DNA of 44,927 bases from a phage, in sequence record PZ871095.1; one strand, written 5' to 3'. The position numbers were made by a program, and so were the translations under genes. Below the pieces are notes generated by a model that saw only the letters and a program-made list of their open reading frames with translations, was not told the origin of the DNA and searched no databases. Positions 6,144 through 43,242 of the stretch are shown piece after piece. Positions within the stretch are counted from its first letter, which is position 1. Every line of letters starts with the position of its first letter.

Positions 6144-6178
6144 TTTGTTTTCCTTCATATCTCTGTTGGTGTGCAACC

Positions 6179-6208
6179 AATATAATGCAACCAACATACG
6201 CAATGCAA
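6179..6208 (-). promoter_or_regulatory. putative sigma70-type promoter for the minus-strand gene pair (TTGCAT-N18-TATATT)
   Basis: Minus-strand reading cgcTTGCATtgcgtatgTTGGTTGCATTATATTGGTTGCAC; contains two copies of the recurring TTGGTTGCA motif; about 30 nt upstream of the ATG at 6143. Confidence 0.4.
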
Positions 6209-11760: not shown

Positions 11761-12012
11761 AAGCGGGACGTCCCGCTTTGTCCCGCCCTGTAAAACCGCA
11801 TATCTAATCACTTTCATTGCATAAACTCAAAGCGGGACAGGCGGGACGTCCCGTTTTGTCCCGCCCATGAAATGTGCATACCTATTCTAATTTCGTGCAT
11901 AAAACAAGCGGGACAGAAAGCGGGACAGACAAGGGGCGGGACAAAGCGGGACAGCACCCCGTCCCCGCCAGTGCTGCCGCGGTTTTCAGCCGATCGGGAC
12001 AAGCGGGACAAA
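11761..12012. repeat. cluster of GCGGGACA octamer repeats (about 12-14 copies, direct and inverted)
   Basis: Direct reading: GCGGGAC(A/G) recurs at roughly 11-16 bp spacing, including two GCGGGACGTCCCG palindromic hairpins followed by T-runs; starts right after the chaperone extension stop. Confidence 0.85.
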
Positions 12013-12015
12013 GCC

Positions 12016-12064
12016 CAGTCTTTCAGACTAGACGGGGGTCAACGGCCCCCCTCGTCTGAGACTG
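12016..12064 (+). promoter_or_regulatory. conserved 49-nt bulged hairpin element (copy 1)
   Basis: CAGTCTttCAGACtaGACGGGGG-tcaacgg-CCCCCCTCGTCTGAGACTG folds into an interrupted stem of about 18 bp; near-identical copy at 39700-39749. Confidence 0.5.
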
Positions 12065-12132
12065 AATAAGGTTTGTTTGAAATTTGCTGATACAATGACA
12101 GTCGGCAACTGCATAAAAAAGGGGACTGCATA

Positions 12133-26959: not shown

Positions 26960-26988
26960 AATATAATGCAACCAATCTAATTATGCAA
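26960..26988 (-). promoter_or_regulatory. putative sigma70-type promoter (TTGCAT-N17-TATATT) with TTGGTTGCA motif
   Basis: Minus-strand reading aTTGGTTGCATaattagaTTGGTTGCATTATATTgaggg, about 45 nt upstream of the ATG at 26912. Confidence 0.4.
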
Positions 26989-29910: not shown

Positions 29911-30189
29911 CTATGCGACCAATTCAGCAACCAATAAATCGCAGTCGGATATGTTGTCGATAACGCGAACGTCAGCACCGCGGCGGGCCATCCGTTCATG
30001 TTCGCGTACCTGGTGCGGCTTCGGTTTTCCACCGGGGCGCTTCACTTCGACGAACACTATTTTGCCGTTGATGATAATAATCAGGTCGGGCGCACCTGCG
30101 CGCCCCTCCCATGCCAGTTTTCGGCAGAATCCGCCGACCTCTTTCACCCGTTTCATCAGGTGACTTTGAATCTTGCCTTCTGGTGTCAT
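29911..30189 (-). CDS. VRR-NUC domain nuclease
   Basis: 92 aa with PDLIII...VFVEVK arrangement (PD-(D/E)xK core) typical of VRR-NUC proteins. Confidence 0.7.
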   Translation of the reverse strand: MTPEGKIQSHLMKRVKEVGGFCRKLAWEGRAGAPDLIIIINGKIVFVEVKRPGGKPKPHQVREHERMARRGADVRVIDNISDCDLLVAELVA

Positions 30190-36827: not shown

Positions 36828-37157
36828 ATGAATGTAAACGACGCAATCGAAATGTTAACGAAGACTGTTTGCAGTGAGACAAGCCGGTCATGGGCATACA
36901 CCGATGCCGTGGGGGCTGTGTTATTTGAAATCGAACGACTGCGGCTTACCGAAAAAGAATTGCGCGCCAGGCTGGAACTACTCAACGGTACAGCAGCAAG
37001 CAAGCTGCAAAAGCACAATGAAGAAATGGAAGAATACAAAAAGCAGGTTATCCGTTTGCGCGACGAAGGGAAATCATGGGCGATGATTGCCGAGTTGACC
37101 GGAATTAATCAGAGCACAGTGCGCTCCTGGGTACGCAATAATAAAACTTCTAAGTAA
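36828..37157 (+). CDS. putative HTH DNA-binding regulator
   Basis: 109 aa; C-terminal KSWAMIAELTGINQSTVRSWV resembles a helix-turn-helix; first rightward gene of the divergent control region; GAGGG ribosome-binding site. Confidence 0.6.
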   Translation: MNVNDAIEMLTKTVCSETSRSWAYTDAVGAVLFEIERLRLTEKELRARLELLNGTAASKLQKHNEEMEEYKKQVIRLRDEGKSWAMIAELTGINQSTVRSWVRNNKTSK

Positions 37158-37167
37158 GGCCACGGCA

Positions 37168-39432
37168 ATGAGCTTAATTAAATTCGCTGTAACACGACCC
37201 GCTAAAAAAGGCGAAAAAGCCAGGGCGGAAAACTTCCAGATGACCACCGATGAGTTTTTCGAATTTATCAATGACGCGAAAGAAATATCCTCGGTGCATA
37301 TCAACAAGACGGAAGATAAAGCCGAGTATGCGCGCCGCAAGCGTAAGGCCGATGGCATCGTGGCGTATACCAGTGACGGATTGCGTCGTAAGACCAGTGC
37401 GGTGGACCGCTCGATCCTGTTCTTTGATATTGACCGCACCGACACCCGCACCCTGCGCCGCTGCCGTAAGGCGTTCATCGACGCGGGTCTGGAACACGTA
37501 TTTCACACCACCACCGGCGACCGCCACCCGCTGAAGGGTGGCACGCGTTGCGCCCGTTTCCTGGTGCTCACTGACAAGCCTGTACCGGCTGAAGACCTGG
37601 GCCGCGTCCAGTATGCACTATTACACCAACTGGGCCTGTCAGATGTGGACTTCGACGATTGCACGAAAGACACAAACCGCCTTATGTACCTGCCTCACCA
37701 GCAATCGGTTGTTAAGTGTCACTACGGCAAACGCGCCCGCGTCCGTCGTCTGCTTCGCCTGGCTGATAAGCTGGGAGTGGAGAAAGAGGAAGTACGCCGC
37801 GAACTAACCCAGGGCGATGACGGCGTGGCGGACGGTATTCTGGATTGGTGCTTCCAGGCAGGATTCGAACCGCTGTCGTCCGGTCGTGGTTATGAAGTGC
37901 CGTGCCCTAACGAACACCTGCACAGCGGCGAAGGGTCCACCGCTATCATGGTTAAGGATGGCGAGATCCGTTTCAAGTGTATGCACACCGGCAACGAGTG
38001 TTGCTCGGAACTGAACAGACACCAGCACCTGGCGCTACGTCTTATCGGGATCCCGGACCACCTGAACGTCGAACCGCACAACATGTCACGTAAGCAAATC
38101 GCCGCCATCCTCCCAGGACTGGACGACGAGGAAGTGGAATCGTGCTATGAACATATCGTTGATGCGGTCGGAGACGGCGACGAGTACGGCGGATGTACTG
38201 ACGCTGACCTGGATAACGAACCGGTCGCACTGTTCAGTAAGCACGACCCGATCATAGAAGGCCTGGTCAACTTCAAATCGACCTGGTATATGGCTGGCGA
38301 GTCGAACATCGGTAAATCGTTCTACGTGCTGGGTCAAATGGGTGCGGTTGCCGCGGGGATTCCGTTCGGGGGTGCGAAGGTCGTCCAGTCCCATTGCTTC
38401 TATTTCGACGCGGAAGGTGGCGAAGCCTCCAACCAGCGTAAGGAAGCATTGCAGATCAAATATGAGCACGACCTCGACAAGCTGCACATTATCGATCTGC
38501 AATCACGCGGCTGGGATATCACCAGCAAATCCGGCTTGCGTGAAGTTATCAGCTTTATCAACCGCACCGCTAACGGCGAACCGGTTGGTCTGGTGGCGTT
38601 CGACTCCCTCAACCAGACTGTTGCGTTGCGGTCCGCCGATGCTAAACCGTTCGACGAGAACAACGCCAGCGATATGGGTGAAGTGGTCAAAGCGCTGAAG
38701 GCCATTGCGGAAAATACCGGCGGCAGTGCGGGCGTCATCCACCACCCGGCGAAAGGCGCAAACGGCAGCAGATCCCCCCGCGGGTCCGGCGCACTGCATG
38801 GCGCTGTCGATTCCGCGTTCTTCCTGGAGCAACCGGACGACAACCAGCCAGGTCAATTGAACCTGTATCACGAAAAGGCACGTAACGGCATCAAGCAAGC
38901 GCCGCGCGGCTTCGTCCTGCTCAAGTGCAAGGTTAAGGTGGATCTCCGCAAGTCCGAGGCGTTCGAAGCCCACCAGTCCACCAGCACCGGGCCGGACTTC
39001 GGTGATGTAGTTGCAGGTTGGGACGTCAAGCCGATTGCATCCACGCCACGCGACGAGACTCTTTACCTCGTACCGGTCGCCCTAGCACCGTTCGCCATCG
39101 AACAGGCGAAGGCCTCGGGCAAGGCCGCAGTTAAGGAAGAGAACTCCGCAGGACCGCGCAACGAAAAAGAGAAAGTGCTTTATGCGGCACTGGAAAAACT
39201 GATGGAAGATAACCCGGACCATACCGGATTCAGTAAATCGGCAATTGTCCGCCAGGCTGGACTGGCGAAAGGTGGCACATCGACGAAGGCAATCGACGAT
39301 ATGGTCGAGCGCGGAGTGTTAGGTTTTTATACAGACCCGCACACCAGGGCCATCTATGGGTCGTCTAATATCGTCATAAAAACGAAGATACCCATCACGC
39401 TTTCGGCGACCGATGACGACCTGAAAGATTAA
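37168..39432 (+). CDS. DNA primase/helicase (primase-like N-terminus plus P-loop ATPase)
   Basis: 754 aa; Walker A GESNIGKS and Walker B-like LVAFDSLNQ in the C-terminal half; Cys/His cluster in the middle; replication-module context. Confidence 0.75.
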   Translation: MSLIKFAVTRPAKKGEKARAENFQMTTDEFFEFINDAKEISSVHINKTEDKAEYARRKRKADGIVAYTSDGLRRKTSAVDRSILFFDIDRTDTRTLRRCRKAFIDAGLEHVFHTTTGDRHPLKGGTRCARFLVLTDKPVPAEDLGRVQYALLHQLGLSDVDFDDCTKDTNRLMYLPHQQSVVKCHYGKRARVRRLLRLADKLGVEKEEVRRELTQGDDGVADGILDWCFQAGFEPLSSGRGYEVPCPNEHLHSGEGSTAIMVKDGEIRFKCMHTGNECCSELNRHQHLALRLIGIPDHLNVEPHNMSRKQIAAILPGLDDEEVESCYEHIVDAVGDGDEYGGCTDADLDNEPVALFSKHDPIIEGLVNFKSTWYMAGESNIGKSFYVLGQMGAVAAGIPFGGAKVVQSHCFYFDAEGGEASNQRKEALQIKYEHDLDKLHIIDLQSRGWDITSKSGLREVISFINRTANGEPVGLVAFDSLNQTVALRSADAKPFDENNASDMGEVVKALKAIAENTGGSAGVIHHPAKGANGSRSPRGSGALHGAVDSAFFLEQPDDNQPGQLNLYHEKARNGIKQAPRGFVLLKCKVKVDLRKSEAFEAHQSTSTGPDFGDVVAGWDVKPIASTPRDETLYLVPVALAPFAIEQAKASGKAAVKEENSAGPRNEKEKVLYAALEKLMEDNPDHTGFSKSAIVRQAGLAKGGTSTKAIDDMVERGVLGFYTDPHTRAIYGSSNIVIKTKIPITLSATDDDLKD

Positions 39433-39507
39433 ATTTTGCGCGCGTTGGTTGCCGATATGGGAATTCCCATATCGCTAAAAGATTAAATTTTGCGCGCATT
39501 GGTTGCC
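39424..39507. repeat. two 30-bp direct repeats flanking a perfect 20-bp palindrome
   Basis: AAAGATTAAATTTTGCGCGC(G/A)TTGGTTGCC at 39424-39453 and 39478-39507; palindrome GATATGGGAATTCCCATATC at 39454-39473; first repeat includes the primase stop codon. Confidence 0.8.
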
Positions 39508-39591
39508 ATTTTGGGTGTTTTTATCATGTCGTATTGGTTGCCGTGTTGTGTAGCTATAATGAATAGTTATGCAATAAAACTGCATAAAGTA

Positions 39592-39697
39592 AGCGGGACA
39601 GAAAGCGGGACAAACAAGGGGCGGGACAAAGCGGGACAGCACCCCCGTCCCGCCCCGGATGGCGCGGCCCGGAGAGGAGCGGGACAGGCGGGACAAA
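39592..39697. repeat. cluster of GCGGGACA octamer repeats (about 7 copies), second locus
   Basis: aagcgggacagaaagcgggacaaacaaggggcgggacaaagcgggacagc...gagcgggacaggcgggacaa; highly similar to 11901-12012. Confidence 0.85.
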
Positions 39698-39699
39698 CC

Positions 39700-39749
39700 C
39701 CAGTCTTTCAGACTAGACGGGGGTCAATGGCCCCCCTCGTCTGAGACTG
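39700..39749 (+). promoter_or_regulatory. conserved 49-nt bulged hairpin element (copy 2)
   Basis: Same sequence as 12016-12064 except one loop base (tcaatgg versus tcaacgg). Confidence 0.5.
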
Positions 39750-39909
39750 CATAAAATCCGGGGATTGCAAAATACACGGCAGCATGATGCGAAGTGCGGT
39801 CGTTGACGAACTAGGCAACCAATGCGAGTTGTATTATGCGGAGTGAAAAATGCGGTTTGCAGTCACAGCGGATAGCGATCAACTTTTTCATGCGCGTGAT
39901 TAATATTGG

Positions 39910-39938
39910 TTGCACACCCCCAGGCGTCCTGCTATATT
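39910..39938 (+). promoter_or_regulatory. putative sigma70-type promoter (TTGCAC-N17-TATATT) flanked by two TATTGGTTGCACACC repeats
   Basis: -35 and -10 hexamers with 17-nt spacer about 30 nt upstream of the ATG at 39967; the -35 lies within one TTGGTTGCA copy and the second copy follows the -10. Confidence 0.4.
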
Positions 39939-39966
39939 GGTTGCACACCAACATGAGGACTGAACA

Positions 39967-40293
39967 ATGAAAGCGATTATCTGGAATTACGCAATGGCAA
40001 TGGCTGCGGCACAAGAAGCGGAGGAGTTCGTCGGTGAGGGAGCGGAAGCGGTCGAAAGACTATCGGCAGCGTGGTCCGTTGTTCGCGTCACGCAGCAGGC
40101 CATCGCCTGCATGCTGGAGCGCCGCTTCGACACGATGGCAGAGATCCAGCCACTGGCGAACGCTATCCAGGACTACGCGCTGGCATTTGCCCGAGAGCGC
40201 CTGGCGTATCGCTTCGGTATCGGCGAGACGGCAGTGACAAACGTCGCCCGGATTAAAGCCCAGCGCGAACTATTCGCCCAGCTTGCGAAATAA
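39967..40293 (+). CDS. hypothetical protein
   Basis: 108 aa, ATG with GAGGA ribosome-binding site. Confidence 0.55.
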   Translation: MKAIIWNYAMAMAAAQEAEEFVGEGAEAVERLSAAWSVVRVTQQAIACMLERRFDTMAEIQPLANAIQDYALAFARERLAYRFGIGETAVTNVARIKAQRELFAQLAK

Positions 40294-40302
40294 GGGGCCA
40301 AA

Positions 40303-42828: not shown

Positions 42829-43242
42829 ATGTTAAGAAGTATTCTTGATCATAACGCCGACGCGATTGCCGCGCTGGCTAAAACAGAAGACCCAGGCGCT
42901 CGCGCTATCATCGCGGACACTATCAGCCATGCGGGGGTCTTCGACGCGAAGTTACCCAGTCCGCCGGAAAGTAAGCCGGTGACGAGTGCGACCGTAACTA
43001 TCGCACCGGAATCCGCCGCAGTTGGTGCGAAGGCCACCGCTTCGGTTGCGGTCCAGCCATCCGACGCGACTAACAAGGCCGGGAAGTGGGTGTCGTCGAA
43101 TCCTGCCTGCGCGGCAATAGATCAGACTACCGGCGAAATCACAGCCCAAACGGCAGGTAGCGCCCACATCTTTTGGGTGGCCTCCGATGGTAGCGGGGTG
43201 ATAGCGTCCGCCATCTTCACCGTAACGGGAGCAGAAGAATAA
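42829..43242 (+). CDS. Ig-like (Big_2-type) domain protein
   Basis: 137 aa; C-terminal ~80 aa look like a bacterial Ig-like domain (alternating hydrophobic beta pattern, GEITAQTAGSAHIFWVASDGSG); followed by a terminator. Confidence 0.5.
   Translation: MLRSILDHNADAIAALAKTEDPGARAIIADTISHAGVFDAKLPSPPESKPVTSATVTIAPESAAVGAKATASVAVQPSDATNKAGKWVSSNPACAAIDQTTGEITAQTAGSAHIFWVASDGSGVIASAIFTVTGAEE

Follow-up and report, generated by a model that had tools for sequence, protein, structure and literature searches.

The stretch of phage DNA analyzed here (sequence record PZ871095.1, 44,927 nucleotides, referred to throughout as the window) contains a gap of 535 bp after the gene for the replicative helicase-primase, and a direct repeat and a perfect palindrome lie at the start of this gap. 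The helicase-primase gene (37168–39432, plus strand; 754 amino acids) was taken from the open reading frame (ORF) list and matches Pfam AAA_25 and PHROG 3228. As the initial annotation had reported, a 30-nt sequence, AAAGATTAAATTTTGCGCGC(G/A)TTGGTTGCC, occurs twice, at 39424–39453 and 39478–39507, with 54 nt from start to start and one mismatch between the copies, and the primase stop codon (TAA, 39430–39432) lies inside copy 1. The palindrome between the copies is likewise real and perfect, but it measures 22 bp (CGATATGGGAATTCCCATATCG, 39453–39474, no strand assigned) and not the 20 bp first given. It is the longest palindrome in the window, and a length of 22 bp was reached in 1 of 200 shuffled sequences. 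The direct repeat can be extended to 41 nt at 88% identity (39421–39461 and 39475–39515). Apart from the two repeat copies, the window contains no occurrence of AAAGATTAAATTTTG with up to two mismatches, and no further copy of either the palindrome (up to three mismatches) or the A+T-rich part of the repeat. Repeat and palindrome are real, non-random features. The description of the surroundings as a dense regulatory region also held, as 39.42–39.97 kb contains six TTGGTTGC boxes and as many GCGGGACA iterons, together with hairpins that are conserved and the region's best promoter-like site. The second GCGGGACA cluster is not directly preceded by the repeat as had been stated; it begins at 39593, 86 nt past repeat copy 2.

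The direct repeats had been viewed as flanks of the palindrome. They are instead successive copies of a copy-number-variable 54-bp tandem unit, and repeat and palindrome together amount to approximately 1.8 copies of a 53/54-bp head-to-tail unit with a 54-bp period in the window. Unit 1 (39421–39474, plus strand, 54 bp) is composed of CTGAAAGATTAA, ATTTTGCGCG, a sequence termed box 1 and the palindrome, and it includes the helicase-primase stop codon. Partial unit 2 (39475–39515, plus strand, 41 nt) is 88% identical to the start of unit 1. Past 39515, comparison with phages SO-1, HK578 and TheodorHerzl reveals the ancestral spacer as it occurs in one-unit phages. The last 13 nt of the palindrome (39462–39474) have no counterpart in the direct repeat and match the reverse complement of 39453–39465 exactly, and the left half of the palindrome aligns with the sequence found 3' of other boxes (GATATGGG, ATTTTGGG, AGATTGGG, AATATGG). 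Tandem Repeats Finder (TRF) did not call the array in the window, where it has fewer than two copies. A coding role for the 54-nt unit (18 codons) was considered and rejected, every unit holding the same in-frame TAA.

Judged by sequence similarity, the window is a near-complete genome of a Dhillonvirus, an HK578/SO-1-like siphophage of E. coli; 3.1 kb around the repeat region match 162 phage records, nearly all Dhillonvirus, at 90–95% identity. A 196-nt query across the region matched 157 records, many of them over 140–142 nt only, that is, 54 nt shorter, and the region was read in more than 30 loci. A 45-nt probe over the palindrome junction is present in 82 of the 157 Dhillonvirus records, at 94 places, and absent from the other 75. 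EP23 has one box before the iterons, no palindrome and no copy of the unit. Two boxes and no palindrome are found in SO-1, HK578, SSL-2009a, EK99P-1, TheodorHerzl and jat; in these two-box phages the primase stop is followed by one box and then directly by ATTTTGAGTGTTTTT. The window and 12 other genomes carry three boxes with a single palindrome, PNS1 carries four with two palindromes, and Teewinot carries six with five palindromes, its array consisting of 5.1 tandem units of 53 bp (TRF score 505, 96% matches). The palindrome is thus missing from SO-1, HK578, EP23 and TheodorHerzl despite the same flanking genes, and SO-1 also lacks the 54-bp extra unit. One phage of the LM40P1 type carries a 32-bp duplication with the left palindrome half only. 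A search of IMG/VR returned only five Dhillonvirus contigs, all with one unit. When a neighbour-joining tree was built from the final 500 nt of the primase gene, phages with one unit and phages with two were intermingled in it, which implies repeated gain, loss or exchange of the array. Head-to-tail copies, and a copy number that differs between close relatives, are what defines a minisatellite, and the feature is such a copy-number-variable tandem array, with about 1.8 units in the window. In kind it is ordinary, a polymorphic tandem duplication of a regulator-box unit.

The part of the unit under constraint is the box. Nucleotide diversity was computed among 13 two-unit genomes, in which the neutral level is 0.19–0.20, with 0.186 at third codon positions of the primase gene and 0.20 in the spacer after box 2. 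Diversity is 0.0 in box 3, 0.015 in box 2 and 0.054 in box 1, compared with 0.069 in the right half of the palindrome, 0.126 in its left half and 0.08–0.105 in the A+T-rich part of the unit. The constrained sequence is CGYATTGGTTGCC, a member of the TTGGTTGC family. This longer subtype is confined to the 535-bp gap, where an iteron/hairpin module is flanked by three direct copies (39441, 39495 and 39530) on one side and by an inverted copy (39814) on the other. Box 1 (CGCGTTGGTTGCC, 39441–39453, plus strand) is the copy brought by the extra unit. Box 2 (CGCATTGGTTGCC) lies at 39495–39507 on the plus strand. Box 3 (CGTATTGGTTGCC, 39530–39542, plus strand) is present in EP23 and has a syntenic counterpart in Cornellvirus VSiP; from this distribution it is the oldest copy. 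Box 4 is inverted (39814–39826, minus strand; the plus strand reads GGCAACCAATGCG), lies beyond the iteron/hairpin module and is 100% complementary to box 2. A degenerate inverted box copy was also observed in the last primase codons (CGGCGACCGATGACGAC at 39404–39420 versus GTCGTATTGGTTGCCG at 39528–39543), and it pairs with box 3 in the RNA fold of 39400–39560 (z -4.6). At the corresponding position VSiP likewise carries its own box in inverted form, over 15 nt and with 93% complementarity (L027, 2405–2419 versus 2468–2482).

The shorter TTGGTTGC is the most over-represented 8-mer in the window, with 20 exact sites versus 2.1 expected and none of 100 shuffles reaching 20. Seventeen of the 20 sites are intergenic, although intergenic DNA makes up at most 15% of the window. 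At orthologous positions the boxes are intact in 18 of 18 alignable sites in TheodorHerzl (two unaligned) and in 20 of 20 in SO-1, at a local divergence of 1–12%. Over-representation between genes together with conservation at orthologous positions is the pattern of a regulator-box regulon. Sites of this family, each 8 nt long, lie at 6173, 6187, 22268, 25301, 25313, 26968, 26985, 29927, 33741, 33757, 36634, 39906, 39937, 43286 and 43309. Most form pairs 12–31 bp apart, in either orientation, and overlap sigma-70-like promoters at the -35, in the spacer or at the start region. TTGGTTGCAT abuts TATATT or TATAGT at 6187, 25301 and 26968; the TTGC of the box serves as the -35, 17 nt from the -10, at 26985, 29927 and 39906; boxes lie at the predicted transcription start region at 6173 and 39937; and reverse-oriented boxes occupy the spacer and start region of a promoter-like site before 43480. 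Examples of such promoter-like sequences are TTGCAT-17/18-TATATT at 6187 and 26968, TTGCTG-17-TATAGT at 29927 and TTGCAC-17-TATATT at 39910. The last of these (39910–39938 within 39906–39944, plus strand) has the best score in the region (11.35) and lies upstream of the next operon (ATG at 39967), with TTGGTTGC boxes over its -35 (39906–39913) and its predicted start region (39937–39944). In the gap itself, a -10-like TATAAT (39555–39560, plus strand; position weight matrix score 8.7) lies 15 nt after the TTGGTT of box 3 and points into the iterons. This hexamer reads TATAAT, TATAGT, TATATT or TATTAT in most relatives read, is mutated in bob and is absent in LM40P1-type records.

Several other signals were evaluated and set aside. 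Within the unit, the strongest promoter candidates take TTGGTT as their -35; TTGGTT-17-TATCAT after box 2 scores 9.6 but its -10-like hexamer is not conserved in relatives, while TTGGTT-17-CATATC after box 1 scores lower than the site after box 2. The sigma-28 (FliA) consensus is TAAAGTTT-N11-GCCGATAA, and a look-alike, TAAATTTT-N13-GCCGATAT, occurs at 39430–39458; its spacer is two too long, its GCCGATAT part varies (GCCGTTAT, GCCAATAT, GCCTATAT), one-unit phages have GCCATTTT instead, and the resemblance was judged coincidental. The CytR octamer GTTGCATT occurs in some boxes (TTGGTTGCATT, at 6187, 25301 and 26968) and not in the boxes of the repeat itself; it too is taken as coincidence.

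A comparison with VSiP, of the related genus Cornellvirus, bears on the protein that may bind the box; the VSiP primase is 49% identical. Its layout is syntenic and consists of the stop codon, ATGTTGGCTG, GAATAGTTATGCA, GGGGGAGA iterons, a G+C-rich hairpin and a promoter with a box, but its box sequence differs and TTGGTTGC occurs nowhere in the VSiP genome. A phage-encoded binder therefore fits better than a host one, and the box is probably the binding site of a phage-encoded DNA-binding protein. The over-represented VSiP 8-mer TGTTGCCG is a coding-sequence word and not a box. As a lead rather than a result, the candidate binder is the helix-turn-helix (HTH) protein of 109 amino acids that heads the primase operon (36828–37157, plus strand; Pfam matches HTH_23 and Sigma70_r4_2). 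A Pfam scan of 17 other window proteins gave no HTH domain match. Dispersed, asymmetric regulator boxes are known in other phages, including the operators of the P1 C1 repressor and the MotA boxes at T4 middle promoters. The TTGGTTGC boxes appear comparable to these in being short, asymmetric, present at about 20 sites that are almost all intergenic, located on host-type promoters, sometimes tandem, and conserved. They differ in that their sequence is unrelated and that the distance from box to -10 is heterogeneous (19, 2, +1 and 13–15 nt). This heterogeneity leaves both pure repression and a MotA-like replacement of the -35 hypothetical for the TTGGTTGC boxes, whose binder is putative.

Downstream of the array lies a module that is a probable replication origin region, as suggested by its repeats and its position. 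The six GCGGGACA iterons of the second cluster (39593–39695, plus strand) begin 160 nt after the helicase-primase stop. The window contains 18 copies of GCGGGACA versus 2 expected, the first cluster being at 11779–12010. Directly 5' of the iterons is an inverted repeat, TTATGCA-N7-TGCATAA (39567–39587, no strand), the 7-nt centre of which exists in two orientations. Roughly one half of the relatives read have ATAAAAC and the rest have its exact reverse complement, GTTTTAT, an alternation suggestive of hairpin-mediated template switching. A G+C-rich compound hairpin (39701–39749, no strand; -27.6 kcal/mol, z -4.3, diversity 0.049) follows the iterons and, by alignment, is shared with a region at ~12015–12065. 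Altogether a module of ~170 bp, containing TGCATAAA, four to six GCGGGACA iterons and the G+C-rich compound hairpin, occurs twice at high identity, 27.7 kb apart (11897–12070 and 39580–39752). One copy lies in the tail gene block before the tape-measure gene and the other after the helicase-primase gene. In the GenBank record of SO-1 the two copies are already marked as repeat regions, 'region A' (at 11.9 kb in the window) and 'region B' (at 39.6 kb), and are said to contain repeats of direct, inverted and palindromic type. Short direct repeats adjoining a helicase gene, as in iteron origins, were found, a point that applies to the module rather than to the 84-bp repeat and palindrome. In region A, an 18-bp perfect palindrome, AAGCGGGACGTCCCGCTT (11761–11778), consists of two inverted iterons, and 78 nt further downstream there is another, similar copy (63-nt repeat, 76% identity).

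In P4, the alpha primase-helicase binds two iteron clusters, ori and crr, that are far apart, and oriV of RSF1010 comprises iterons, an A+T-rich region and ssi hairpins. By analogy, the two distant 8-bp iteron clusters of the window (11779–12010 and 39593–39695), which form the shared 170-bp module with conserved hairpins and of which one follows the helicase-primase gene, may represent a two-site origin like P4 ori/crr. The resemblance does not extend to the feature at the primase stop, because the 54-bp unit and the palindrome lie outside the shared module and are dispensable, and the origin is itself putative here. The best PDB match of the helicase domain was RSF1010 RepA, at an E-value of 0.47 that is not significant.

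The explanation favoured here, with somewhat better than even confidence, is that the boxes bind a phage DNA-binding protein and form a labile array bordering a probable origin/control region, with the palindrome as a by-product. The array lies between the helicase-primase stop and the iteron/hairpin module, and each unit contains one box, CG(C/T)ATTGGTTGCC, a local subtype of the genus-wide TTGGTTGC box. Box 3 sits over the -35 position of the conserved TATAAT that points into the iterons. The extra unit adds a third box 54 bp upstream of box 2, about five helical turns away and on the same helix face, and box 1, if active at all, would serve as an accessory site through which boxes 2 and 3 are occupied more fully. 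The palindrome may date from the duplication that gave rise to the 54-bp unit, as the product of a fold-back template switch for which the self-complementary AATT served as primer; a fold-back origin is proposed because the right half of the palindrome repeats, in inverted orientation, what follows the box. The inversion of the loop in the 39567–39587 repeat among relatives indicates that template switching at palindromes appears to occur here. Mutations of the quasipalindrome or fold-back template-switch type arise during replication and generate inverted repeats or make existing ones perfect; the palindrome resembles their products in that its new 13 nt are an exact inverted copy of adjacent sequence, centred on AATT, and in that the neighbouring loop occurs in both orientations. 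Unequal recombination or slippage between units would then alter the copy number. The order of events, the 32-bp unit seen in LM40P1 first and the 54-bp unit later, is suggested by few genomes.

Several observations weigh against this explanation. Boxes 1–3 lie 13–15 nt from the nearest -10-like hexamers, compared with 19 nt at strong promoters, and their role may differ from that of promoter boxes. Conservation is lower in the extra box 1 than in boxes 2 and 3, with TTGGTCGCC in 3 of the 13 genomes. The palindrome and the A+T-rich part of the unit (0.07–0.13) fall below neutral diversity, which could reflect some constraint, or sequence that is younger or gene-converted. In the divergent LM40P1-type phage OZ035780, a perfect palindrome lies directly between two boxes. 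This may point to a role, but the same arrangement would result if an array like that of JLBYU37 lost, by deletion, the sequence between two ATATCGC microhomologies. Finally, the literature searched holds no binding, transcription or replication data for any Dhillonvirus.

The main rival is that the array is a neutral minisatellite, in which boxes 2 and 3 are functional and the extra unit (box 1, the palindrome and a second A+T-rich segment) is slippage DNA without effect. This is a possibility of some substance, if on the whole unlikely. About half of the genus lives without the extra unit, the number of boxes ranges from one to six and that of units up to about five without phylogenetic pattern, box 1 is conserved less than the two boxes that follow it, and the palindrome decays by one-sided changes. 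Pure neutrality does not readily explain why the diversity of the unit (0.05–0.13) is under the neutral level of the same genomes, nor why units of 53/54 bp hold the boxes near whole helical-turn spacing, which could be a coincidence.

The initial annotation had proposed that the palindrome could be an operator for a dimeric DNA-binding protein. Such an operator would act on the primase operon at its end, on the origin region or on the expression of downstream genes. A perfect 22-bp dyad that is rare by chance invites this reading, as do the palindromes found perfect in at least nine instances read, one divergent lineage among them, and the single symmetric change in B2, where the central GGGAATTCCC has become GGGGATCCCC. 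The comparison among relatives makes it improbable. Besides its absence from the 75 records, SO-1, HK578 and EP23 among them, the palindrome occurs once in the genome, which holds neither a second copy nor a cluster of half-sites. Dyad symmetry was found, but the palindrome does not accompany the flanking genes in all relatives. Nor is the symmetry kept. Twelve distinct palindrome variants contain 14 unpaired cells that break the symmetry and six single-sided wobble changes versus one double-sided change, that of B2; the left half is more variable than the right, and the half-sites vary independently. The covariation score was 0.059, compared with 0.076 in shuffles, and 456 of 500 shuffles reached the observed value, so there is no covariation. 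Imperfect palindromes occur in Zar3M (GATTTGGGAATTCCGATATGA) and in the hybrid units of Teewinot (ATTTTGGGAATTCCCATATCG, three mismatches). The palindrome shows no sign of being needed and is probably not functional; although it drew attention first, it is most likely an evolutionary by-product.

Quite improbable, too, is the proposal that the 54-bp units are working origin parts and not transcriptional operators, each offering a box for an origin-associated protein and a palindrome that, after unwinding, forms a hairpin or cruciform as a loading or priming signal for the RepA-type helicase-primase, much as the ssi hairpins do in RSF1010. If it were true, the number of units, between none and about five, would set when or how efficiently replication starts, and the array would amount to a minisatellite of naturally varying 'origin strength', in a virulent phage. 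Independently of this proposal, the array has a parallel in sopC of the F plasmid, with 43-bp units that each contain a short inverted repeat; plasmid iteron arrays are likewise tandem. The array is reminiscent of these in its head-to-tail units of tens of bp with one motif and an internal dyad, its location beside replication genes and its varying copy number. It differs in that it has only 1.8 units in the window and a dyad that is not conserved, it belongs to a virulent group, and ParA/ParB-type genes were not noticed in this phage.

The other function first suggested for the palindrome, a hairpin at the 3' end of the primase transcript, which would act as a terminator or a barrier to exonuclease, is very improbable. 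The RNA can form a stable stem of 9 bp (five G-C pairs) with a 4-nt AAUU loop, at -13.6 kcal/mol (z -3.4) on the plus strand and -14.3 kcal/mol on the minus strand, 21 nt past the primase stop codon, and in some variants (mckay) G-U pairs are kept on the plus strand. The stem-loop of an intrinsic terminator is thus present but its U-run is not, the stem being followed by CUAAAAGAUUAAA; 3' of the stem no U-tract was found on either strand (CUAAAAGAUUAAAUUUUG on plus, GCAACCAACG on minus). A terminator scan of 39000–40300 returned nothing on the plus strand, and Rfam gave only mir-606, at an E-value of 0.49, far under the gathering score and located outside the repeat and palindrome. As with the operator, the sequence is absent in half of the genus and accumulates uncompensated mismatches. 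Least credible of all is the footprint of a small mobile element, with two abutting terminal inverted repeats and a target-site duplication, as superficially suggested by an 11+11-bp inverted repeat in a direct duplication and by relatives with an 'empty site', since the duplication is 30–41 nt long and usual target-site duplications are 2–14 bp, arrays of three and five units exist in place of a single insertion, the palindrome's left half has homology to what lies 3' of the other boxes, and no related DNA was found in the window, in 5,426 E. coli genomes or in 72,556 plasmids, which also speaks against a host origin. Two metagenome matches to the spaced repeat pattern were unrelated and due to chance.

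Dhillonviruses are common E. coli phages, are represented in the BASEL collection and are used for work on bacterial defence and phage engineering, and no description of their regulatory DNA was found. The literature on the boxes, the array, its polymorphism and Dhillonvirus promoters or origins, including the papers on SO-1, YD-2008.s and B2, likewise yielded no description. A genus-wide TTGGTTGC box that marks probable promoters, and a putative origin module at two places of the genome, should be useful. The polymorphic box array beside the module provides ready-made, isogenic-like comparisons, for example between Bas14 (one unit) and Bas15 (two units).

With regard to the wider genome, the annotated proteins of TheodorHerzl were mapped onto the window; gene order is collinear and the genome is essentially complete. 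The structural genes extend up to ~24 kb on the plus strand, and the replication genes occupy 24 to 36.8 kb on the minus strand. The helicase-primase shares 98% amino acid identity with TheodorHerzl bas14_0051. After the gap, small genes from 39967 (ATG) are followed by lysis genes and then by a phosphoesterase-type protein of 380 amino acids. Several Dhillonvirus records annotate two small ORFs within the gap (39559–39744 and 39836–39970) as hypothetical proteins (e.g., bas14_0052). Variation at the three codon positions is 0.131/0.080/0.064 and 0.110/0.112/0.086, respectively, with no third-position excess, compared with 0.022/0.003/0.186 in the primase gene, and the start codon of the ORF at 39559–39744 varies among relatives; from this pattern, they are probably not genes. 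A leader motif, ACCAAC(N1-2)GAG, is shared by the first genes of three transcription units, just 5' of the ribosome-binding site, at 6161 (minus strand), 36809 (plus strand) and 39947 (plus strand), and VSiP has GCCAACAGAGGAG at the corresponding place. Lastly, an ORF of 137 amino acids after the endolysin gene (42829–43242) matches immunoglobulin (Ig)-domain segments found in structural and major tail proteins of phages (PHROGs 215 and 341); a domain of this type is unexpected at such a location.

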